Source: a virus. Taken from it: 56,618 nt of DNA. Shown piece by piece: positions 2,284 to 56,618 of the stretch. The position numbers and the translations under genes are program-made. The notes below the pieces were generated by a model, which saw only the letters and a list, made by a program, of their open reading frames with translations, was not told the DNA's origin and did no database searches. Where the stretch lies: the UHGV virus genome UHGV-2050067. One strand, written 5' to 3'. Position 1 is the stretch's first letter. Each line of letters opens with the position of its first letter.

Positions 2284-4101
2284 TCAATGGTGAAATAAAC
2301 CTTTAACCTTGCTAAAGAATCCGTCTTCTGGCTTTTTATCGAGCCGGTACAGTAATTCTTTTACTTTGTCTTGCAATGCCATTATCAGCTTACGATAACG
2401 TTCATGATTGCGCTGTTGACGCTGTTTCAGGTCGCCCATGTACCGTTTTTGTGCTGCCCGGCGTTGCATGTTGCGAGCAATCAGTTTGTTATATCTGTCT
2501 GATAGTTGGTTATAGCCAGATTGTAAGATGTTCACATTATTTTGCAGTTCCAGTTTATCATCCTCAAGTTCTGCCACTTTAAGCTGATAGCCCTTGATAA
2601 CTAGAGCCTTGTTGCTTGCCTCCTGTTGTTGCGCTTTGATTGTTTCCTTCGCTTCTGCCAGATCTGTACGAATGTCGTTGATTGTTTGTTTGTCTGCCGC
2701 AGCTTTCGCTTTTGCGTCGTCGTTATTTGCAGCGTTGACCTTTTGTCTTAGTTCGCAATTAGTTTTAACCAGATTGTCGCGCTCACTTTCTAGCTTCTGG
2801 CGTTTACCCTGTTCGTCACCAAATGCCTTATTCGCCTTGCTGTATTGGTGTTTCCAATAATCAACGCGGAGTTGGTAGCTGTCGCGATCTTCTCTCGCTA
2901 TGTTGAGCACTCCATGTAATTCCTTGATTTGTCCCTCCAGCGTTTTTACCTGGCATTTAAGATCTCCCACCTGTTTGCTATCTGTTTGCTGCGCAATAGC
3001 CGCGCTGATAGGGTTGTCTTTAAATTTGCGAAAAGCTACTGATAAATCAACCCTGTCCTTTTCCGCTCCTATCCGTGCCACGATCATTCCTGCGATCTCA
3101 AGCGGTGCATATCCTTTTTTGATCTGCATGTCACATTGTTCAGTGCAATAAATATAGCCAGGTAATTTATTCAAGCTTTCAATGCGGTGGCGTAATTCAT
3201 CCTCATTAATACCATACGCCGCAGCAATATCCATCAGATTGATTTCATCGGCGTCATTAACGCTAATATTATGACCGTGAAATTTGAATACTCGCGGTAA
3301 CTCATGTTCATGCGGTTCCGTGTTACTTTCTTGTTTCATTTCGTCACCCTTGTAATAACGCTGTTTTATGCGCTCCGCTTCTTCTGGTGAGATATAATCA
3401 GGGAAGTGGTTCATTTGCTTACCGTAGTATCTAATTTCGCCGTTGATGCGCTCTTTTATTGCGTCGTTAATATTATCGAAATAACCAAAGCCGTGATTTA
3501 TTGTATTAACTTTAATTGTTGCTTCCCATTTATTTTTCGCCTTATTCCATAGAACGCCCTTGATACCGCTATTTCCCCAAGGCTTACGTTTTATGCCTCT
3601 TTCGCCGCGTGATATTAATTTCAGGTTTTCAATTTTCGCGCATGAATTATCGCCGTTTTCTATTACATACCCATCAGGAATAGGGCCGTTAAACATTTCC
3701 CACACAACGCGATGCAGTTGATAATAGCGATCTTTTACACCGATTTGCAAACGTTCATAATCAGTGCCTTTTTTGCATTTAAACCCGCGAATTATATCGC
3801 CTGGTTTAATACGACATTTCCCACGCCCCCTAGTCACCTTACTAATCAGAAAACCATCAGGATGATAATCAAACAGTTCAGGCCAATTTTCCGCGCACTG
3901 GCTGCAATCAGCGTACTGAATATCGCCAGCTTCCACCGCTGTTATTTCCTTCCAATAGCCACCGGCCACCATGCGTACAAACTCGCTTTCTTTACCCCAA
4001 TGATTCCACGTTTGATATTTACGCTTCCGCATAAACACCATTCCTTCATCAATTTTTGCAAACAATTTACTTCCTCTTATCGATATAAAATATCTAGACA
4101 T
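2284..4101 (-). CDS. HNH_3-like/AP2-domain homing-endonuclease-like protein with long C-terminal coiled coil
   Basis: 605-aa ORF; HRVVWEMFNGPIPDGYVIENGDNSCAKIENLKL matches the HNH_3 pattern but lacks the catalytic His-Asp; GIKGVLWNKAKNKWEATI is AP2-like; C-terminal ~300 aa heptad-rich. Confidence 0.55.
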   Translation of the reverse strand: MSRYFISIRGSKLFAKIDEGMVFMRKRKYQTWNHWGKESEFVRMVAGGYWKEITAVEAGDIQYADCSQCAENWPELFDYHPDGFLISKVTRGRGKCRIKPGDIIRGFKCKKGTDYERLQIGVKDRYYQLHRVVWEMFNGPIPDGYVIENGDNSCAKIENLKLISRGERGIKRKPWGNSGIKGVLWNKAKNKWEATIKVNTINHGFGYFDNINDAIKERINGEIRYYGKQMNHFPDYISPEEAERIKQRYYKGDEMKQESNTEPHEHELPRVFKFHGHNISVNDADEINLMDIAAAYGINEDELRHRIESLNKLPGYIYCTEQCDMQIKKGYAPLEIAGMIVARIGAEKDRVDLSVAFRKFKDNPISAAIAQQTDSKQVGDLKCQVKTLEGQIKELHGVLNIAREDRDSYQLRVDYWKHQYSKANKAFGDEQGKRQKLESERDNLVKTNCELRQKVNAANNDDAKAKAAADKQTINDIRTDLAEAKETIKAQQQEASNKALVIKGYQLKVAELEDDKLELQNNVNILQSGYNQLSDRYNKLIARNMQRRAAQKRYMGDLKQRQQRNHERYRKLIMALQDKVKELLYRLDKKPEDGFFSKVKGLFHH

Positions 4102-12225: not shown

Positions 12226-12460
12226 AATGGCTTTATTTAACCTGTCAGAGCCGCAATTTAACGCCGTAAAAACTGCCGCACGCGCGGCGCTTTCTGCCTG
12301 CAAAACGGAGGTAGAAAAGAACGGCTACAGCGATAAAGCCACGCGGCTGATACTCGACAAGCATTATCGCAAGGTCGCCCCGCTAATCAGTATTGAGCGT
12401 TTTGTGTGGTTGGTTGGGTATTTAAACAACCGTTGGGGGACTGAACAAGATTATTTTTAA
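12215..12460 (+). CDS. hypothetical protein (about 81 aa)
   Basis: In-frame ATG at 12215 within track ORF 12170-12460, overlapping the upstream stop. Confidence 0.35.
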   Translation: MFYEMALFNLSEPQFNAVKTAARAALSACKTEVEKNGYSDKATRLILDKHYRKVAPLISIERFVWLVGYLNNRWGTEQDYF

Positions 12461-12470
12461 GGGGGGCGTA

Positions 12471-13010
12471 ATGAAAAATGATTTTGGAGGCAGCAGCACA
12501 CCGAAGGAAATTAAAGACCTGTGGCAGACACCTAAACCAGTTTTTAGAGGAATGGACCGCGAGTTTGAATTTGTCGCTGACGTGGCGGCAAACAAGGCAA
12601 ACGCATTAATCCCGCGATATATAACCGAAGAAATGGACACGCTTACTTATCCGTGGGGAGCGGTGGCAATGCCTGGCGAATATGTATGGATGAATCCGCC
12701 ATACTCAAATCCGGGTCCATTTATTGATAAAGCGGCGCTCGAACATCAACGGAATCACATCGGTTGCGTGATGTTGTTGCCCGCTGACATTTCTGTTAGC
12801 TGGTTTATGAACGGCGTGGAGACTGCAAACGAATGCCGATTAATCACGCGCGGGCGGCTGGCGTTTATCAATGCTGCAACAGGTAAACCAGCAAGTGGAA
12901 ACAATAAAGGGAGCTTGTTCTTGATCTGGCATCCACGATGCAGACATGAATGTATTTTCACGCAGATAACACGTAAAGAGCTATATGCAAGAGGTGCAGA
13001 AAATGAATAA
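12471..13010 (+). CDS. DNA N6-adenine methyltransferase (phage Dam-like)
   Basis: 179 aa; NPPY catalytic motif (VWMNPPYSNPGPF). Confidence 0.7.
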   Translation: MKNDFGGSSTPKEIKDLWQTPKPVFRGMDREFEFVADVAANKANALIPRYITEEMDTLTYPWGAVAMPGEYVWMNPPYSNPGPFIDKAALEHQRNHIGCVMLLPADISVSWFMNGVETANECRLITRGRLAFINAATGKPASGNNKGSLFLIWHPRCRHECIFTQITRKELYARGAENE

Positions 13011-13494
13011 AGCGGCTGAATTGCTGAGACTTGCGGCTGAAACTATCGAGGCAAGAGGAGAACAAAACGGATACGATCGAAAAGAAGAAAAATCAGCGCC
13101 AAAAATAGCCACTATTTACAACGCTAAGAAGGGGACAAGTTTAACCCCGCTTGATGTATGGGATCTAATGATTTGCCTCAAGGAGGCGCGATTAGAGGCC
13201 ATTTTAAGCAATGGAAGCGATCCGCTCGACACTCTCATAGACCTTATTGCTTACAACGCGCTAAAAGCGGAGCAAATATTAGCGGAGCGGGAGGAAGAGC
13301 AAAAGAAAAAACAGGGTGATTTTGATATGTCGTTAAATTGCCGCTGTAAGAAAACCTCAATACCAGGCGACCTAATCGCTAGTGGTGAAGTAATAATGAA
13401 TGGTAGCTTCCAGCTTGGTAACGGCTGGCGGTTTAATAAAGAGGCTTTATTGTATACACCGAAGGATCATAAAAATGGAAAGGGTGACGATTGA
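13003..13494 (+). CDS. hypothetical protein (163 aa)
   Basis: ATG at 13003 with SD gaggtg; overlaps the Dam stop; no motif recognised. Confidence 0.45.
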   Translation: MNKAAELLRLAAETIEARGEQNGYDRKEEKSAPKIATIYNAKKGTSLTPLDVWDLMICLKEARLEAILSNGSDPLDTLIDLIAYNALKAEQILAEREEEQKKKQGDFDMSLNCRCKKTSIPGDLIASGEVIMNGSFQLGNGWRFNKEALLYTPKDHKNGKGDD

Positions 13495-13978
13495 CAGGTT
13501 ATTAGCCTGCGTTTATGTCGCCGTTTTTGTGATCATCAACCTTATTGTTAACCACTGCGGCCCGTGGGTAATTCCGATCACCACGGTAGCCGCCGTGTGT
13601 GTCAATATGATGATCCGCGACTTTCTGTTATATGACGGCGGTCTGAAATGGTCGGCTACAACATGCGCCGCCGCTGGCGCAATCACGGTGCTGATAAATT
13701 ACGACGCAGGAATGGTGGCGATCGCGTCATTCGTTGCGGTTGTTTCCGGTGCGCTTATTTCTGGCGGCGTTTACCGGGTTTTACCTGGTGATTTCGATTC
13801 GAAACGCTGGCCTGCAAATATAGCGTCCGCCATCGGCGATGCGTTAATTTTTCCTACGCTATCGTTTATGGCATTTATGCCGGAAATATCAGCTATGCAA
13901 TTCATCTCAAAAATGGCAGCGGTAACGGTGATCACCATCATTATGCGCCGCTATTTCACGTTTGAGGGTAGAAAATGA
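13475..13978 (+). CDS. multi-pass membrane protein, YhhQ/VUT-family-like (queuosine-precursor transporter family)
   Basis: ATG at 13475; hydrophobic throughout; DSKRWPANIASAIGDALIFPTLSFMAF resembles the YhhQ motif SRRWWLAPTASTLFGNVSDTLAFFFIAF as recalled. Confidence 0.45.
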   Translation: MERVTIDRLLACVYVAVFVIINLIVNHCGPWVIPITTVAAVCVNMMIRDFLLYDGGLKWSATTCAAAGAITVLINYDAGMVAIASFVAVVSGALISGGVYRVLPGDFDSKRWPANIASAIGDALIFPTLSFMAFMPEISAMQFISKMAAVTVITIIMRRYFTFEGRK

Positions 13979-14733
13979 GCAGGGCTAAACATTGGTTAAA
14001 TAATTGGCTTAGAAGTTGGGTGGTGTGGTCGCTGTACGACGGCAGCGGGTACGCCGTTAAAGATTGGGCGGAAGCTGGATATAAGTGCTATTGCTTCAAC
14101 TATGACGGCGCAAATCACGGAGATTATGAAGGCGTTAAAATCATTCATCCAAATATTGAATACGTTAACATCTGGATTGATAGCCATTTCCTGGGAATGT
14201 TCTCCCCTGAATTGTCTGTTTATCCAGGGCCTGACATTATCCTGGGCTTTCCTCCATGCGACGATCTCGCTGTGTCAGGCGCTCGCTGGTTCGTTGATAA
14301 ATACAGGAAAGATCCTTGTTTTCAGAATAGGGCGGCAAGAAACGCAATGTTGGTTGAATCTCTGGCTAACATGTATAACGTGCCGTGGATGGTGGAGAAT
14401 CCTGTTGGTGTGCTGTCAACGCTATGGCGTAAACCGGATTTTATCTTCAATCCTTGCGCTTACGGTGGCTACCTGCCGGAAGATGACAAGCATCCTGCTT
14501 TCCCTGATGTTTACCCACCGCGCGACGCGTACACGAAGAAAACTTGCATATGGTGCGGCAACGGATTCAGGCAGCCGCTTTTTAGACCTGTAGATCTTAA
14601 CTCTGGTGATAACCCTGGGTGGGCGAAAACCGGAGGCAGGACGAAACGAACAAAGATGATCCGCTCACTAACACCGCGTGGCTTTGCCCGTGCTGTATTC
14701 CTGGCTAACCATGACCGCGTTTTACCGGACTGA
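13975..14733 (+). CDS. DNA cytosine-5 methyltransferase (short, orphan-type)
   Basis: 252 aa; LYDGSGY (motif I-like), GFPPCDDLAVSG (PC motif), MVENPVG (ENV motif). Confidence 0.6.
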   Translation: MSRAKHWLNNWLRSWVVWSLYDGSGYAVKDWAEAGYKCYCFNYDGANHGDYEGVKIIHPNIEYVNIWIDSHFLGMFSPELSVYPGPDIILGFPPCDDLAVSGARWFVDKYRKDPCFQNRAARNAMLVESLANMYNVPWMVENPVGVLSTLWRKPDFIFNPCAYGGYLPEDDKHPAFPDVYPPRDAYTKKTCIWCGNGFRQPLFRPVDLNSGDNPGWAKTGGRTKRTKMIRSLTPRGFARAVFLANHDRVLPD

Positions 14734-14892
14734 AGTTTACAAAATGGCGTCATTGCGTGATATGGATCACATAATGGCGCTTTTCGCCTTGTTCTGGTGT
14801 ATCCATTTTGTATACTTCAAGCAAACAAAATGCTCTTTAAAAATCCGGCAGCGCTGAAATGCGTAGAAATCACCTGAAAAGGAGAGAGCATT

Positions 14893-26747: not shown

Positions 26748-26825
26748 AATCTGCCTCACAATCACCCACAAGTTTTTCTATTTTTCGCGTAGCAACGCGT
26801 AAACATGTATTCAGGAGTAAACATT

Positions 26826-28196
26826 ATGCCATCAAATTTAGATTTGGCGGTTAATGCTGCCTTGTCACAACGCCAGGCGGCCTATGCCCGCTATGCAGCC
26901 GCCAACCCATTCACTATGGGGATAGATGCCAAACGCGATACTGCATGGAGTGAATACGGATTCAAAGAAGAGATCACGTATAGCGACCTATACAAATTGT
27001 ATCGACGTGGCGGTATCGCTCATGGTGCTGTAGAAAAGATTATTACAACTTGCTGGCGCACAATGCCAATGATGATCGAGGGAACAGAAGACGAGAAAGC
27101 GGAAACGGAAACACCCTGGGAAAGAGAAATCAAGAAACGGTTTGATAACAGGTTCTGGCGCATCATTGCCGAATGTGACCGCCGCCGCCTCATTGGTCGT
27201 TATGCTGGCCTGTTGATTCATGTCAGAGATAACCAGCCGTGGGATCAGCCAGTGACAAAAGGCGTAGGCATTGCCAAATTTACCCCGGTATGGGCTGGCG
27301 CTCTTACACCGAAGGACTTCGAAGAAAACCCTGATAATGAAAACTATGGCCTGCCTACATGGTGGGAATACAAGGAACGCATTAACAATAAGACCATTGC
27401 AAGAAAGATCCACCCTGACCGCATATTTATCTTTGGTGACTATTCTGATGATGCTATCGCTTTCCTTGAACCTTCCTATAACGCATTTGTGTCACTGGAG
27501 AAAGTGGAGGGGGGTAGCGGTGAATCATTCCTGAAAAACGCCGCCCGTCAGCTTGCTATCTCATTCGATAAGGATATTGATTTTCGTTCCCTGGCAGCTA
27601 CATACGGATGCGACGTCACAGAGCTACGCGAAAGATTCAATGAGGCTGCGGCTGAAATGAACAAGGGTAACGATGTGATGATGGCATTACAAGGGGCGAC
27701 AGTAAGCCCGCTGGTGACTGCCGTATCTGACCCGTCAGCAACCTATGACGTCAACCTGCAAACCGCCGCCGCTGGTATTGATATTCCAACCCGCATCCTG
27801 GTTGGGAACCAGCAGGGGGAACGCGCATCAACTGAAGACCTCCGCTATTTCAACAGTCGCTGCATGACACGCAGGGAGGAAATCGGGGGTGAGCTTGAAG
27901 ATCTGTTTCGCAAGATGGCAGATCTCCGCCTTGTCAGTATGCCAGTCGATGTATCAGTCTTATGGGACGACCTAAACGCCATGACCAAAGCCGAACTACT
28001 GGAAGCGGCATACAAAATGGCACAAATCAATCAGGCTTGTTTGGCTACTGGTGAAGAAATATTTAGCGGTGATGAGATCCGCGAGGCTGCCGGATACGAA
28101 GGCCCAGCCAGTGAGGTAGAAACGGAAGAGGAGGACGATGATGAAGGTGAAAAAGATAATCAGGCGAATACCTCCAGCCGCGATAATGCCATCTAA
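26826..28196 (+). CDS. portal protein (putative)
   Basis: ATG at 26826 with SD aggag 8 nt upstream; about 456 aa; acidic C-terminal tail; sits between terminase and head-morphogenesis gene. Confidence 0.6.
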   Translation: MPSNLDLAVNAALSQRQAAYARYAAANPFTMGIDAKRDTAWSEYGFKEEITYSDLYKLYRRGGIAHGAVEKIITTCWRTMPMMIEGTEDEKAETETPWEREIKKRFDNRFWRIIAECDRRRLIGRYAGLLIHVRDNQPWDQPVTKGVGIAKFTPVWAGALTPKDFEENPDNENYGLPTWWEYKERINNKTIARKIHPDRIFIFGDYSDDAIAFLEPSYNAFVSLEKVEGGSGESFLKNAARQLAISFDKDIDFRSLAATYGCDVTELRERFNEAAAEMNKGNDVMMALQGATVSPLVTAVSDPSATYDVNLQTAAAGIDIPTRILVGNQQGERASTEDLRYFNSRCMTRREEIGGELEDLFRKMADLRLVSMPVDVSVLWDDLNAMTKAELLEAAYKMAQINQACLATGEEIFSGDEIREAAGYEGPASEVETEEEDDDEGEKDNQANTSSRDNAI

Positions 28197-35332: not shown

Positions 35333-35422
35333 TTAGTTTTTGTTTTTCAGCGCTTTTAACATTTGCTCGATAAAGTCAGCATAGCGCTCATGTTCGTTGG
35401 GGTGGTAGTTTACGTTTTTCAT
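35333..35422 (-). CDS. small ORF (29 aa) upstream of the secreted moron
   Basis: MKNVNYHPNEHERYADFIEQMLKALKNKN with SD aagagga; same strand as the moron. Confidence 0.25.
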   Translation of the reverse strand: MKNVNYHPNEHERYADFIEQMLKALKNKN

Positions 35423-35500
35423 TTTCTTATCCTCTTTTGCTTCCTCCGGTCAATCCGGCCTTTTAAGTCCCTTCGCTCTATCCCTTTCCTTTGGCTTCTT

Positions 35501-35570
35501 TATACAAAATGTGTTCACTGAAGTAAATCCATTTTGTATAAAATAGAGGCATAGATCACATTTTGTATGA
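35501..35570. promoter_or_regulatory. inverted TACAAAATG / CATTTTGTA motif cluster in divergent intergenic region (candidate moron promoter/operator)
   Basis: tatacaaaatg (35501-35511), ccattttgtataa (35529-35541), cacattttgtatg (35558-35570); same motif recurs at other junctions. Confidence 0.4.
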
Positions 35571-35579
35571 GGTTAAATC

Positions 35580-38500
35580 ATGTCAACAAATTTAGGCACA
35601 ATTTATTACGAGGTTGATGCAAAAACGGGTCAGCTTCTGACTGTTCAGCGCGAGGTAGATCGCGCAACTGGCAAAATGGAAAAGGATTTGGAGCGCGTGG
35701 ATAGTGCCGCCACTCAGGCAAGTAAGTCACTGTCAAAGCTATCCTCGATTGCCAGTGCCCTGGGTGCTGCAATGGCAGCAAAAAAAATCATTGAGTATGC
35801 AAACGCCTGGCAGGAGGTGAATAACAGGCTAATCAATAGCGTTCGTGCTGGTGAATCACTGGCAGACGTTAATCAGCGTGTATTTCAGATCGCGCAAAAT
35901 TCACGAAGCGATCTTGATGCTACGGCAGATCTTTACGGTAAATTAGAGCGCTCGACGCGCGACGCTGGTTTATCGACGCAAGCACTTGGTGATATGGTTG
36001 AAACCATTAACAAAACATTCCGCATTTCTGGCGCTTCTGCCGCTGAAGCAGAAGGCGGGATCCGTCAGTTAGGTCAGTCCCTCGCCAAAGGTATTTTGAA
36101 TGGCGATGAATTTAACTCCGTTACAGAAAACGCCACCAGGCTGTCAGAGGGTTTGGCTAAATCATTGGGCGTATCGTCGGCAGAAATGCGCAAGATGGCA
36201 GCAGAAGGGAAAATCACCCGTGAAGCTATCATTAAAGCCCTTAAGGAAATGAAAGCGGAGGTTGATGCTGAGTTTTCTAAACTCACCCCAACTATGCAGG
36301 AGGCTTTCACTGTTGCAGGCAACAACGCAGCTAAATTTTTCGGCAGCAATTCGTCAATTATGGGCGGGATTGGTGCTTTTAATTCGGCAGTTGTAACCCT
36401 GTCAGAAAACCTTAACGAAATAGCTACTGCATTTATTGGCCTTGCCACTGTGATGGGTGGCAGAGTGGTAAATAAATTCGTGGCTGCAACAGCAGAGGCA
36501 TTAACTAACGCTCAGGCAACCAGGGCACAAACGGCAGCGGCACGGCAGGCCGCTCAGAGTGAATTGGCGCTAGCTAACGCTCAGGTGGTATCAGCACGGC
36601 AATCAGCGGCGGCGTCGGCGGCAAGGCTGAGAGAGGCACAGGCTTATGCTGCGGCAAATGCCGGAACAAAATTCGAAGTTCAGACGCTGAAAGAGTTGGC
36701 TGTAGCCAAAGCACAGAACACAGCGGCATCAAACGCCCTTACTGCGGCAGAGCAGCGCCTTGCTGCGGCCCACACTGCGGCGGCGACTAATGCGGGACTA
36801 CTAAAAACAGCATTTAGCGCTACTCTGGGCGCGATCGGCGGTATCCCTGGCGCGTTAATGCTTGCTGTTTACGGGTTGACAGCATATGTAGATCACGTAG
36901 ATCAAACAGCAGAGGCAAACCGCAACCTTGCTGATTCAGTGGATGTTAGTACCGAATCACTGGAGCGAATGAGCAAGGCGGCTAAACTGGCTGGCGCAGA
37001 TAAACTACAAATATCAATGGGTCAGTTAGAGGAAGACATTGACAGTCTTAACAAACAGATTGACCAGGACACGCAGGCGCTGGAACTGAATAAGCGGGCA
37101 CTGGAGAACGCCGAGGAGGGATCACGCGCTTACGCCAACCTATCGAAAGCTAATCAGGAAATCACAGCCCGCCTGACCAGGGAAGAAGCACAGCGTGAAG
37201 ATATTCTCGACCGCCTTAATCAAATGCAGCGCAAATATATTCTGCTTATGCAGGATACAGATCCGCTAATGAAGACCATTGCCACTTCTTTGGGGTTGGT
37301 GGCAGACGCATACGGAAGAATCACCACAGAAGCAGAACGCGCAGCAGCAGCAACGCAACACGCTTCAGCAGCGCTTAACGCAGATCAACAAGAACTAATG
37401 GATCTGGCAAACCGCCGCCTGGAACTGGCAAAACTCGACTCCAAAACAGCCAGCAGGGAAAAGGCGATTGATGGGTTTAAGCGTGAGGCTGAGAAAGCAA
37501 ACCTGACCGGGGAAGCGTATGAAAAATACATGGCTACAATGACCAAAGCATACGACACAGAGCAGAAACGCGCCGAAGCTGAAAGAAAGGCCAGTCATGG
37601 GAAAAAAACTGGCGAAAGCGAGGAGAAAAAACGTCTAAAAGAGGCTGAACGCCTGCGCAAAGAGCTTGAGAAGCGGGGCCAGAATGTTGCAGACAAATAC
37701 AACGTAGAAGCCGCAGCACAACGGAAATTAAAAGAGGATCAGGATGCGCTAAACGCCGCACTTAAAAGCGGAAAAATAAATACCGAACAATATACTACGG
37801 CATGGAAAGCGCTGGTTGCGGCGGAAGAGCAACGCAAACGCCAATCTAGTTGGGATAATCTGGTAAACAATGAGCTGCAACTACGCGGGCAGCTAGACCC
37901 AATTCAGCAGGCGATGAACGAATGGGCGGTTCGCAAGCAGATGCTCACAGATTTAGGCGCTACAGAGCAATATATGAGGGAGCAAGAAAAAGCGCATGAG
38001 AGGGAAATGCTATCACTTCAGTGGGAGAGGTATAAGGCGCAGTCATTGACCAACCAACTGTTAGGCGATGCTGTTGATGCAATGAGCGGATCTGCAACTA
38101 ACGCGCTTGTCGGCCTGATTAACGGTACTCAAAATTGGCAACAGGCGATCGCTAACATTGGCAATACAATCCTTTCCTCCGTGATTGGTACGATTGTTCA
38201 AATGGGTACTGAGTGGGTCAAGCAGCAATTGATTGGTGATACGGCAAGAACTATGGCAACAACCAAAGCACTGGCAGAGGCGGCAGCGTTATCATCAGCG
38301 TGGGCTACTCCTGCATACTTGGCAAACGTAGCCACGATGGGCGGCGCGGCGACCGTGGGGACTACGAGCCTTACTACTGGTGTGGCTGGAGCAAAAGCGC
38401 TTGGCCTGGCTGGCGCTCGTTATAACGGCGGTGCGGTGGCTGCGGGCAGCCTCTACAAGGTCGGCGAACACGGCAAACCGGAAATCTTTCAGGCAAGCAA

Positions 38501-51550: not shown

Positions 51551-52765
51551 ATGCTGACGGATACGAAATTACGCGCAATAGCAAACAAGCCATATGACGG
51601 CCCGAACGAGATAGCGGATCGCGACGGCTTGTCTGCCAGGATAAGCCCGAAGGGGAAAATTATTTTCCAGTTCAGGTACAGGTTCAACGGTAAGCCTGTA
51701 AGGATGAAGATTGGCGATTACGGCAGTATGACATTGAAAGATGCACGCTACGCGGTGGCAGAATACAAAGAGCTATTAGCGAAGGGGAAAAACCCAACTG
51801 TTTCAGTAAAGCAAGCGATAAATATTGAGCGTGGCAAATTAACAATAAGCGCCATTGTGAGTGACTATTTATCCCTGCCGAACGTTATTAAGCTGGTTGC
51901 ATATAATGACGTCAGGAGCGCGCTTAAGCGCCATGTTGTCGATAAATTCGGTGAGTATATTGCCGATGATGTCAGCACTAAACAATGGATGGACATATTC
52001 GGCGAGATCACTGCGGCGGGCCACGCGGTTACGGCTGGGCTGATACTCAAGCGAATGAAGATTGTTGTGAACAGCGCTATCCGGCGCGGGCTAATGACCA
52101 GTACAGCGATAAACAATATCAGGGTTGTTGACGTAGGCGAAAATTATGCGGTTGGCGAGCGTTATTTATCGTGCGATGAAATAGGCCATTTCTGGCGAAC
52201 GGTGGATGATTCGCAGATCTACCGTCAGAACAAGATAGCATTAAAGCTATTATTGCTAACCGGGTGCAGGGTGGGGGAGTTGCAGAAAATGAGAAGGGAA
52301 CACCTCGACCTGGACAACGGAGTATGGACCGTCCCGGCGGCGGTGGCGAAGACAAGAAGTGAAATCAGGCGTGGATTATCAGATTTGTCGATAAAAATGC
52401 TCAGGGAGGTATTATCCTCCCATGAGTATGATTATGTGTTCCCGCCAGTGATTAACGGAGGGAACAGACCAGTAAACGCATCAGTGATAAAAGTAGCTGC
52501 AATCTTCGTGCGTAAAAGGATGGGAGGCAAATCATGGTCCTGTCACGACCTCCGCAGGACGTGCCGTACACACCTTTCAGCTATAGGTGTTCCGGTACAT
52601 GTCGCGGAAAAGGTATTAGGCCATTCACTCAGGGGAATACTGGCAGTGTACGACAAATATGATTATCTTGATGAACAAAAGGAGGCGTTAAATAAATTTG
52701 CGGATTACGTCTTATCCCTGGCTGGCGTTAATCCGATCTTATCAAAGAACCGCATCACCTCCTGA
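51551..52765 (+). CDS. int: tyrosine integrase (P4-type)
   Basis: 404 aa; arm-binding-like N-terminus; catalytic region with GCRVGELQKMRREHLD (Arg), HDLRRTCRTH (His-x-x-Arg), VLGHS, VYDKYDY (Tyr). Confidence 0.9.
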   Translation: MLTDTKLRAIANKPYDGPNEIADRDGLSARISPKGKIIFQFRYRFNGKPVRMKIGDYGSMTLKDARYAVAEYKELLAKGKNPTVSVKQAINIERGKLTISAIVSDYLSLPNVIKLVAYNDVRSALKRHVVDKFGEYIADDVSTKQWMDIFGEITAAGHAVTAGLILKRMKIVVNSAIRRGLMTSTAINNIRVVDVGENYAVGERYLSCDEIGHFWRTVDDSQIYRQNKIALKLLLLTGCRVGELQKMRREHLDLDNGVWTVPAAVAKTRSEIRRGLSDLSIKMLREVLSSHEYDYVFPPVINGGNRPVNASVIKVAAIFVRKRMGGKSWSCHDLRRTCRTHLSAIGVPVHVAEKVLGHSLRGILAVYDKYDYLDEQKEALNKFADYVLSLAGVNPILSKNRITS

Positions 52766-55259: not shown

Positions 55260-56618
55260 TTAAAAGGATGCGTTATTCTGGTTGTTTCGTTGGTTAAATC
55301 GACTTGTGCGATGATTCATCGACTGAATACATGCAGACGCTGCGCGGGCCTGGTCGCAAGGGAGGATATTGCCGTTGTCGTCAAATCGCTGGTAAACAGT
55401 CCCCGTTTTCCCGTGACGGTTTTTCGAAACAATGATCTCCATATATTCGCGGGCAACAGACTGTTCATCATAGTACCCGTCGCGATAGACCATGATGATC
55501 CGGTCTGCGTCCTGTTCAAGATTCCCGGAATCGCGCAGATCAGAATTATTCGGGCGCTTGTTCGGTCGTTCCTCAACGCGGCGGGATAATTGCGCCAGCG
55601 CCAACACTGGTACGCGCAATTCTTTCGCCATCATCTTCAACGACCATGACAATTGCCCTACAGCGAGATCGTGACGTTCGGCCTTAGCCAGCTTCATTAG
55701 ACCGATGTAGTCAATCATTACCATACCCAGGTTCGGGTGTTCCTGCTTCATGCGTTCCGTTGTTGCGCGTATTTCCTCAACCGTCAACTGCGACGCGTCA
55801 ACGATCCACACCTCAAGATTAGCAAGTGCGCTCATCCCCTGGCCTACATGCGCCCAACCCTCATCATCAAGTTTTACCGGATTGCGCAGGCAGTCAGTTG
55901 ATAAATTACCAGCGCCAGCGATAGCACGCTCAGTCATCTGATCGAGTGACATTTCAAGCGTGAAGAGCAAAACGCCAACCCGCTGTTCTTTACCACCAGG
56001 GTAAGGGCGTTCAGCGGCTGCGCGGGCAATTGTCAGCGCCAACGCAGATTTACCAGACCCAGGGCGTCCGGCGAGAAGTACCAAATCAGTAGCGTTAATG
56101 CCGCCCAACATTTCGTCGAGTGGTTCTATACCTGTTTTGATGTTGTCAGAATTGACACCGCATTCCATGCGCGTGCTTAAAACATCCGTATATTCCTGTA
56201 CCGCATCGCGCAACAGAACCGGAATGATCTTATCTTTCGTTACCTTCAATTTTGAATACCGGGAATCAAAATCTTTCATCGTCTCTTTGACGACCTCAAG
56301 CGTCCCCGTTTCCAGTTTGTAGCGCATATCGTCGATGAGTTCCAACATCTGCCGCCGCTGGTGCTCTTCACGTAGTAGCTGTGCGTATCCTTTCAGGTTT
56401 GCGGCAGAAGGACACGATCGCGCCGTTTGCATCAGAGGAACAAAGTTTTCATTGCCAATCTCATCGCCAACCAATAACGCGTCGATAAGATTCCTGTTTC
56501 TGGCTTGCGCCCGGATAACCTCAAACGCACGTTTGTAAAGCGGGATCGTGAACACTTCAGGATCCAGAGTGGCGAGAACATCTTGCGCGTTAGGAGTGAG
56601 GCCGCCTAACAGCAGCCC
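55260..56618 (-). CDS. replicative DNA helicase (DnaB-like); 5' end lies beyond the window end
   Basis: Walker A LLAGRPGSGKSALALT and DnaB-like C-terminal domain; reading frame stays open upstream of the track start at 56555 to the window edge, matching the longer N-terminus of the left-edge copy. Confidence 0.85.
   Translation of the reverse strand, partial: GLLLGGLTPNAQDVLATLDPEVFTIPLYKRAFEVIRAQARNRNLIDALLVGDEIGNENFVPLMQTARSCPSAANLKGYAQLLREEHQRRQMLELIDDMRYKLETGTLEVVKETMKDFDSRYSKLKVTKDKIIPVLLRDAVQEYTDVLSTRMECGVNSDNIKTGIEPLDEMLGGINATDLVLLAGRPGSGKSALALTIARAAAERPYPGGKEQRVGVLLFTLEMSLDQMTERAIAGAGNLSTDCLRNPVKLDDEGWAHVGQGMSALANLEVWIVDASQLTVEEIRATTERMKQEHPNLGMVMIDYIGLMKLAKAERHDLAVGQLSWSLKMMAKELRVPVLALAQLSRRVEERPNKRPNNSDLRDSGNLEQDADRIIMVYRDGYYDEQSVAREYMEIIVSKNRHGKTGTVYQRFDDNGNILPCDQARAASACIQSMNHRTSRFNQRNNQNNASF

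Follow-up and report, generated by a model that had tools for sequence, protein, structure and literature searches.

Two orphan methyltransferases, a DUF6378 protein and a divergent YhhQ/VUT-family membrane protein in a conserved cassette of an mEp021-like coliphage

Our analysis of the viral genome UHGV-2050067 (56,618 nucleotides (nt), referred to below as the window) focused on a cassette at positions 12471-14733 that encodes two putative DNA methyltransferases, a DUF6378 protein and a small membrane protein. The initial annotation, made from the sequence alone, had placed four open reading frames (ORFs) in this region, and all four were found on the plus strand (Table 1). Consecutive ORFs overlap by 8, 20 and 4 nt, each has a Shine-Dalgarno-like sequence 5' of its start, and the four genes are predicted to be translationally coupled. 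The longest form of the membrane protein ORF begins at 13400 (192 aa); the conserved and best start is the ATG at 13475 (167 aa). Ratios of nonsynonymous to synonymous substitution rates (dN/dS) against phage mEp021 and one E. coli prophage were 0.05-0.09 for the adenine methyltransferase (Dam), about 0.3 for DUF6378 and 0.013-0.026 for the membrane protein, which is thus under strong purifying selection. The value for the cytosine methyltransferase-like protein (C5MT) was 0.125 against mEp021 and undefined against the prophage (dS = 0). Based on these values the four ORFs are real genes, and an origin as chance ORFs was ruled out.

The membrane protein had been noted to resemble the YhhQ/VUT family, and this resemblance was borne out, in that a direct Pfam search misses the protein but profile methods place it in the family. 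A search with the profile of its close family against 1.84 billion representative sequences recovered 257 proteins, and PF02592 (Vut_1) was matched by 79 of 82 full-length homologues (best E-value 5.1e-15). A hidden Markov model (HMM) of distant homologues, built without the window protein and its two closest relatives, found the membrane protein ORF at 1.2e-36 and gave no other match in the window. Alignment of the family with E. coli K-12 YhhQ by hhalign covered 143 columns with a probability of 94.3% (E 9.8e-8), and tblastn matched phage genes annotated as 'VUT family protein' at 28-35% identity (E 1e-22 to 1e-10). The protein also belongs to phrog_4899 (1.3e-46), a PHROG shared by CAjan gp41, a 'putative preQ0 transporter', and the VUT protein gp18 of PEAT2; the link to CAjan gp41 needs profiles, since a pairwise BLASTP comparison with it was not significant (E 1.4). 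An AlphaFold2 model contained six long helices (pLDDT 69.8), TMHMM and Phobius both predicted six transmembrane helices for the mEp021 orthologue, and the top BFVD match in Foldseek was a 'Putative vitamin uptake transporter' with a probability of 0.97 and a weak E-value of 0.16. No match was obtained with the membrane protein in an NCBIfam scan or in phmmer against PDB sequences. Family residues kept in the window protein are N22, G29, R48, D49, A82, A84, S85, N115, D122, F126, P127, F131, Q142 and K146; those replaced are D44N, D96S, S123A, A130S and G149A. Homology to E. coli YhhQ (COG1738, PF02592) extends over almost the full length of the window protein and includes shared RD, ASxxA, N...D-S..F and Q...K motifs, whereas YhhQ is longer (221 aa) and the window protein lacks a direct Pfam match and two conserved acidic residues. 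On profile homology, we identify the membrane protein as a divergent, short phage-type member of the YhhQ/VUT family (hereafter VUT). About 20 of its distant homologues (P0151, P0158, P0159, P0162 and others) are larger, ca. 290-340 aa; they have one more hydrophobic segment, and a beta-rich stretch, in many cases with F/W-R-R or R-K as its last residues, extends their C-terminus.

Both flanking genes had been described as methyltransferases. For the N6-adenine enzyme with its NPPY motif this assignment is well supported, as the protein passes the curated thresholds of both phage Dam families, PF05869 (3e-51; 173.9 bits vs a cut-off of 28.1) and TIGR01712 'phage N-6-adenine-methyltransferase' (3.2e-40; 137.4 bits vs 97.05), and matches phrog_111 (7e-63). 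The GATC count of the window is close to expectation (observed/expected 1.03), with neither depletion nor enrichment, and is uninformative as to N6-adenine methylation by this Dam; CCWGG is not depleted in the window either. The short C5-cytosine methyltransferase of the initial annotation also stood, by its fold and catalytic motifs, with a search against the corresponding profile (PF00145) giving no match. The 252-aa protein falls into PHROG 757 'DNA methyltransferase' (2.5e-86), and its more than 7,500 homologues measure ca. 227-260 aa; some are named 'DNA cytosine methyltransferase' by NCBI, and among those listed 3 of 120 carry a precomputed PF00145 match. While phmmer with the single protein against PDB sequences returned nothing, the family profile matched only C5-methyltransferases there, weakly, with the PC motif in register with DNMT3B and HaeIII. 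In a 44-sequence alignment P93, P94, C95, E141, N142 and P143 are invariant, and the invariant blocks comprise (F/Y)DGSG (motif I-like, a variant of FxGxG), PPC (motif IV), ENP (motif VI) and RSLTPRGFA (motif IX-like), the last represented near the C-terminus of the protein by RSLTPRGFARAV. Only a short segment separates motifs VIII and IX. The protein thus has the Rossmann-type fold of the C5-methyltransferase catalytic domain together with the Cys and Glu catalytic motifs, and we regard it as a minimal enzyme of this fold for which plain methyl transfer to DNA cytosine would be the default assumption. PHROG 757 proteins, common in Drexlerviridae and prophages, include hundreds of members that bear the NCBI name 'DNA cytosine methyltransferase' and are 52-93% identical to the window protein; the family differs from characterised C5-methyltransferases in size (ca. 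230-250 aa vs at least 320 aa), in having ENP instead of ENV, in being missed by PF00145 and in lacking a clear motif X. Our literature search found no experimental characterisation of this short family.

The remaining gene, listed at first as a 163-aa unknown protein, is a genuine ORF that matches DUF6378 (PF19905, 2.4e-07; 31.3 bits vs a cut-off of 27.1). A homology search returned 238 matches, nearly all of them single-domain E. coli prophage proteins carrying PF19905 and none an informative fusion; phmmer against PDB sequences gave matches at chance level only, and the literature on DUF6378 was uninformative as to function. DUF6378 is the fastest-evolving gene of the cassette, with 61-80% amino acid identity where its neighbours show 91-99% (VUT 98-99%), and the ORF is split in 6 of 47 related loci. 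Such fast evolution would fit a host-interaction or counter-defence protein.

Judged from its sequence, the window represents an mEp021-like (mEpimmI) temperate coliphage, a group of Nus-dependent non-lambdoid gut coliphages (PMC11893012). The initial annotation did not see the link to the conserved cassette published for mEp021 and the mEpimmI group. The genes mEp021_30 to mEp021_33 are the same four genes in the same order and with the same flanks (PMC11893012), the VUT proteins being 98% identical, and are annotated as putative Dam, hypothetical protein, putative membrane protein (six transmembrane helices) and putative DNA cytosine methyltransferase, with ipe upstream and terminator t4, NinF, NinG, RusA and Q downstream. 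At the DNA level the cassette is 86-90% identical to mEp010, mEp044, mEp021, mEp515, mEp554, mEp013 and MagusPhagus, and it occurs in prophages of 35 complete E. coli genomes with identities of up to 94%. The window phage is a distinct member of the group, no record exceeding 94% over the cassette. Overall, about 50 related phages and prophages share the cassette, and a more distant phage carries a 52%-identical VUT within the same gene set.

The order ipe-Dam-DUF6378-VUT-C5MT-NinG-RusA-Q is kept in 31 of 47 IMG/VR loci, and most of the remaining loci deviate from it only where an ORF is split or the contig ends; occasional splits affect Dam, DUF6378 and C5MT. C5MT is absent from three loci, all with an intact VUT, and in one further locus a deletion of DUF6378 and the VUT N-terminus joins Dam to the C-terminal half of VUT, with C5MT kept. 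The three loci rule out an obligate coupling of VUT and C5MT. The idea of a 'module' acting as one functional unit therefore has to be given up. Because loci without C5MT keep VUT, the locus with the Dam/VUT deletion keeps C5MT, and the C5MT family is widespread without VUT, the four genes behave as accessory genes that are independent of one another within a common operon, not as one obligate machine. In the place of the C5MT gene, L024 (6501-7028) and also L040 carry an ORF for a 175-aa HNH-type (homing-like) endonuclease, and in L056 (6505-6780) the gene is cleanly deleted.

As to the position of the cassette, the intergenic stretch 14734-14892 is 97% identical to mEp021, compared to about 89% in the adjoining coding DNA, and contains boxA-like and boxB-like elements that are consistent with the published nutR2. 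Since nutR2 of mEp021 is sited just 3' of the cytosine methyltransferase gene (PMC11893012), the cassette is placed in the early operon antiterminated by the N-like protein Gp17. Window genes 3' of the cassette encode NinG (4e-65), RusA and Q (3.9e-30). The ipe homologue upstream is context only and lies outside the modification genes.

Table 1. Coordinates of the cassette genes, their catalytic motifs and the flanking features in the window.
Feature	Position	Strand	Basis
Orphan phage Dam-type N6-adenine DNA methyltransferase, 179 aa	12471..13010	+	PF05869, TIGR01712, phrog_111
Dam NPPY catalytic motif (motif IV), residues 75-78	12693..12704	+	from translation
DUF6378 protein, 163 aa	13003..13494	+	PF19905
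Short phage-type VUT/YhhQ-family six-helix membrane protein, 167 aa	13475..13978	+	phrog_4899, profile evidence
Orphan minimal C5-cytosine methyltransferase-fold protein, 252 aa	13975..14733	+	PHROG 757, motifs
PPC (motif IV) of the C5-methyltransferase-like protein, catalytic Cys95	14251..14259	+	invariant in family alignment
ENP (motif VI, equivalent of ENV) of the C5-methyltransferase-like protein	14395..14403	+	invariant in family alignment
Upstream neighbour, homologue of mEp021 ipe (inducer of pleiotropic effects)	12227..12460	+	phrog_303 2.4e-25; phmmer 3e-46 to mEp021 locus; syntenic with mEp021_29 ipe
Hairpin followed by UUUUCG, counterpart of predicted mEp021 terminator t4, end of cassette	14746..14781	+	-23.2 kcal/mol, z -3.4; aligns with mEp021 TERM_4
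nutR2-like site: boxA-like GCTCTTTAAA and boxB-like CGC-UGAAAU-GCG hairpin (14852-14863)	14831..14863	+	placed by inference

Some further observations concern the window as a whole. Its first 30 bases are repeated at 56314, the ends 1-305 and 56314-56618 sharing an overlap of about 305 bp, which suggests that the window is an entire phage genome of ca. 56.3 kb in a circularly permuted or circular assembly. The integrase gene (51551-52765) and the leftward replication genes wrap around the window ends. Among the latter is an ORF for a 605-aa protein with an HNH_3 endonuclease domain (2.1e-11; 2284-4101, minus strand), and no gene of comparable size lies in the corresponding part of the related prophage of E. 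coli GF66.2. In locus L002 a gene at 35370-36749, equivalent to about 26805-28196 in the window, bears the PGAP label 'anti-CBASS protein Acb1 family protein'; it lies between the large terminase and minor head protein genes and is by position the portal gene, so the Acb1 name looks like an annotation artefact.

Phage YhhQ homologues were initially said to go with 7-deazaguanine DNA modification, and this agrees with the other cultured phages examined, as DpdA was located beside or near VUT in nine out of nine. In the eight phages found by tblastn (LHE71, RCIP0319, Opt-719, PEAT2, Phc, Tbat1_6, ECO111 5-P and AB3P2) DpdA (PHROG 887) immediately adjoins VUT, directly downstream in seven and directly upstream in AB3P2. 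The CAjan cluster combines VUT and DpdA with FolE, QueD, QueE and QueC. VUT-DpdA adjacency is also seen in two metagenomic relatives. A C5MT family gene directly downstream of VUT was considered for the T1-like phages but ruled out, as the gene there is DpdA; LHE71, a T1-like phage, does have a C5MT family member about 2 kb from its VUT-DpdA pair. Compact VUT-DpdA pairs without nearby preQ0 synthesis genes occur in LHE71, RCIP0319, Opt-719, Phc, Tbat1_6 and ECO111 5-P, i.e. in T1-like and other siphophages. Coordinates of such two-gene pairs are L010 4016-5319, L011 4001-5301, L009 4989-6292, L065 3989-5285, L066 3989-5247 and L067 3992-5265, and their genes are mostly 'hypothetical protein' in GenBank.

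For the window itself, the statement that no DpdA/TGT-like or Que gene is present was upheld by tblastn and HMM searches. No match in the window was found by tblastn with CAjan FolE, QueD, QueC and QueE, leaving the transporter only, and five phage DpdAs gave a single marginal 40-aa match of PEAT2 DpdA (E 0.01) in the tail-gene region, which we read as chance; apart from this match, nothing fell below E 0.3. A DpdA HMM that found DpdA in positive controls at 1e-42 to 1e-145 reached no better than E 0.72 among the 657 window ORFs with a length of 40 aa or more. In the large unassigned ORFs of the window Pfam detected only Rha/ANT, HNH, Lin1244 and integrase domains and nothing related to DpdA, and in the 47 IMG/VR mEpimmI loci no DpdA was found within 6 kb of VUT. 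Since both DpdA and the preQ0 synthesis genes are missing from the window and from the 47 related loci, 7-deazaguanine DNA made by this phage is unsupported, as is a link of its VUT to such modification. Other contexts of VUT without DpdA are few: P0133, encoded in a temperate phage close to an N6/N4 methyltransferase, and P0138 from a contig of about 129 kb. Several representative distant VUT homologues are located on contigs of only ca. 1 kb. At L004 5516-6363, P0133 (a 44%-identical VUT) is followed by two paralogous small PHROG 2510 proteins and then the N6/N4 DNA methyltransferase, so that here, too, VUT lies near a methyltransferase in a phage that lacks DpdA. Hutinet et al. remarked that phage YhhQ homologues correlate with no one group (PMC6884629).

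Taken together, it appears reasonably probable that the four genes are a delayed-early accessory cassette of an mEpimmI coliphage, combining two orphan methyltransferases, a YhhQ/VUT permease and DUF6378, with the queuosine (Q) pathway of the host as the most likely sink for the transporter. The four coupled genes belong to the rightward early operon, with terminator t4 and nutR2 at their downstream end, and both methyltransferases and the permease would be expressed during lytic growth. Dam and C5MT would most likely pre-methylate phage DNA as it replicates, at N6 of adenine and C5 of cytosine respectively, and methylated progeny DNA would resist restriction enzymes that cut unmethylated sites. 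Pre-methylation of phage DNA is a classical anti-restriction strategy, and an anti-restriction role is a reasonable suggestion for two orphan methyltransferases in a delayed-early operon. The permease would import the 7-deazaguanine bases preQ0 and preQ1, as E. coli YhhQ does (Zallot et al. 2017, as cited in PMC6884629). Import of these bases is the most likely activity given the family membership, with the substrate taken by analogy. The phage cannot itself put 7-deazaguanine into DNA, because it has neither DpdA nor preQ0 synthesis genes, and the imported base might instead be passed to host Tgt and the queuosine-tRNA pathway, the only known sink without DpdA. This sink fits the proposal of Hutinet et al. 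that Q-pathway genes in phages without DpdA may boost host Q synthesis (PMC6884629). The VUT gene probably descends from a VUT-DpdA pair such as accompanies the related transporters of other phages, and was kept for a benefit independent of DpdA.

Several points weigh against this account, and some of them make the host-Q step one in which we have low confidence. Because E. coli already encodes YhhQ and synthesises preQ1 de novo, the benefit of additional import is not obvious. In rich medium, a yhhQ deletion left the DNA modification of CAjan unchanged (PMC7544227). Two conserved residues are replaced in the window VUT, D44N (Asp in 65 of 82 homologues) and D96S (Asp in 61 of 82), and substrate or mechanism may therefore differ. 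Codon usage of the phage shows no bias towards NAU codons (NAU fractions 0.43-0.56), a bias that would have hinted at a demand for queuosine. These four points underlie the low confidence in the host-Q step. The window contains no tRNA genes. Other points concern the assignments themselves. Neither the 192-aa nor the 167-aa form of VUT gave anything at E <= 0.1 in the direct Pfam scan (PF02592 gathering score 27.2 bits), and the 252-aa protein had no match in Pfam (PF00145) or NCBIfam. It also ends right after the motif IX-like RSLTPRGFARAV, and no clear canonical motif X (GN-V) was identified in the 44-sequence alignment. The activities of the four proteins are predicted from sequence, and no experimental characterisation was found in the literature.

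The main competing view of the transporter is that the VUT-like protein has been repurposed, either for another small molecule or as a membrane effector, e.g. in phage exclusion or an Ipe-like perturbation of the membrane. The replacements D44N and D96S, which affect acidic transmembrane residues, together with S123A and G149A speak for it, as does the lack of Q or DpdA partners; the other relatives without DpdA, on the P0133 and P0138 contigs, likewise lie in unrelated contexts; moreover, VUT lies two genes downstream of ipe, the overexpression of which has membrane-related effects (PMC11893012). However, the rest of the signature is intact (N22, G29, R48-D49, A82/A84/S85, N115, D122, F126, Q142, K146), the replacement of D96 is common to DpdA-adjacent VUTs of T1-like phages, and the very low dN/dS over the whole length fits a conserved transport fold. 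We regard repurposing as unlikely. An import function under strong selection that serves the phage in a DpdA-independent way, either by manipulating the Q-tRNA status or deazaguanine pool of the host during lytic growth (possibly to the harm of DpdA-dependent competitors) or by feeding a non-homologous enzyme of the cassette, seems quite unlikely. Possible candidates for such an enzyme are the C5-methyltransferase-fold protein, located in the 'DpdA slot', or DUF6378.

A cryptic 7-deazaguanine modification would mean that VUT imports preQ0 or preQ1 and that a transglycosylase not recognisable by homology inserts the base into phage DNA; this role could fall to the C5-methyltransferase-fold protein, to DUF6378, or to a DpdA provided by the host or another prophage. 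The adjacency of DpdA and VUT in all eight other cultured phages from tblastn lends it some support, the C5-methyltransferase-fold gene overlaps the VUT stop codon in the downstream slot used by DpdA elsewhere, and VUT is under strong purifying selection without a visible partner. Nevertheless, the window and the 6 kb around VUT in the 47 loci contain no DpdA-like sequence, and the 252-aa protein has a Rossmann-type C5-methyltransferase fold with Cys/Glu motifs and not the TIM-barrel fold of TGT. Furthermore, C5MT was lost in three relatives with VUT intact, its family of more than 7,500 proteins shows no sign of needing a VUT neighbour, and LHE71 has a member alongside its VUT-DpdA pair. We consider this cryptic pathway highly improbable. 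A last alternative concerns the 252-aa protein only, which might not be a plain 5-methylcytosine maker but transfer another group (carboxymethyl from carboxy-S-adenosyl-L-methionine, Cx-SAM, as in phage CmoX), act on RNA, or have altered catalysis. HhaI Asn304 and CmoX Arg350 mark the cofactor-selecting position (PMC12783734). Such a deviation from the preferred reading as a DNA cytosine methyltransferase is quite improbable.

The cassette as such is already known, since the mEp021 sequence has been deposited with a partial annotation of it, and orphan methyltransferases are common in phages. What is new is that the 'hypothetical membrane protein' of the cassette, whose PHROG is one of 'unknown function', can be assigned as a phage YhhQ/VUT transporter. 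GenBank records of the mEp021 group give it only as 'putative membrane protein' or 'hypothetical protein', and a YhhQ/VUT label appeared neither there nor in the portions of the paper text that were searched (PMC11893012). The window VUT resembles CAjan gp41, PEAT2 gp18 and the T1-like VUTs in PHROG membership (4899), size (ca. 155-170 aa) and its six helices, with 28-35% identity to those of PEAT2 and the T1-like phages. Their genes, however, lie beside DpdA, in CAjan also with FolE, QueD, QueE and QueC, whereas the window VUT lies beside methyltransferases. In several T1-like phages the comparison also pointed to two-gene VUT-DpdA modules that had not been annotated. VUT occurs without DpdA in a widespread group of gut coliphages, while the nine other cultured phages checked all pair the two. 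Phage mEp021 on E. coli K-12 would therefore offer a clean and genetically tractable case in which to ask what a phage may gain from the import of Q precursors without their insertion into DNA.

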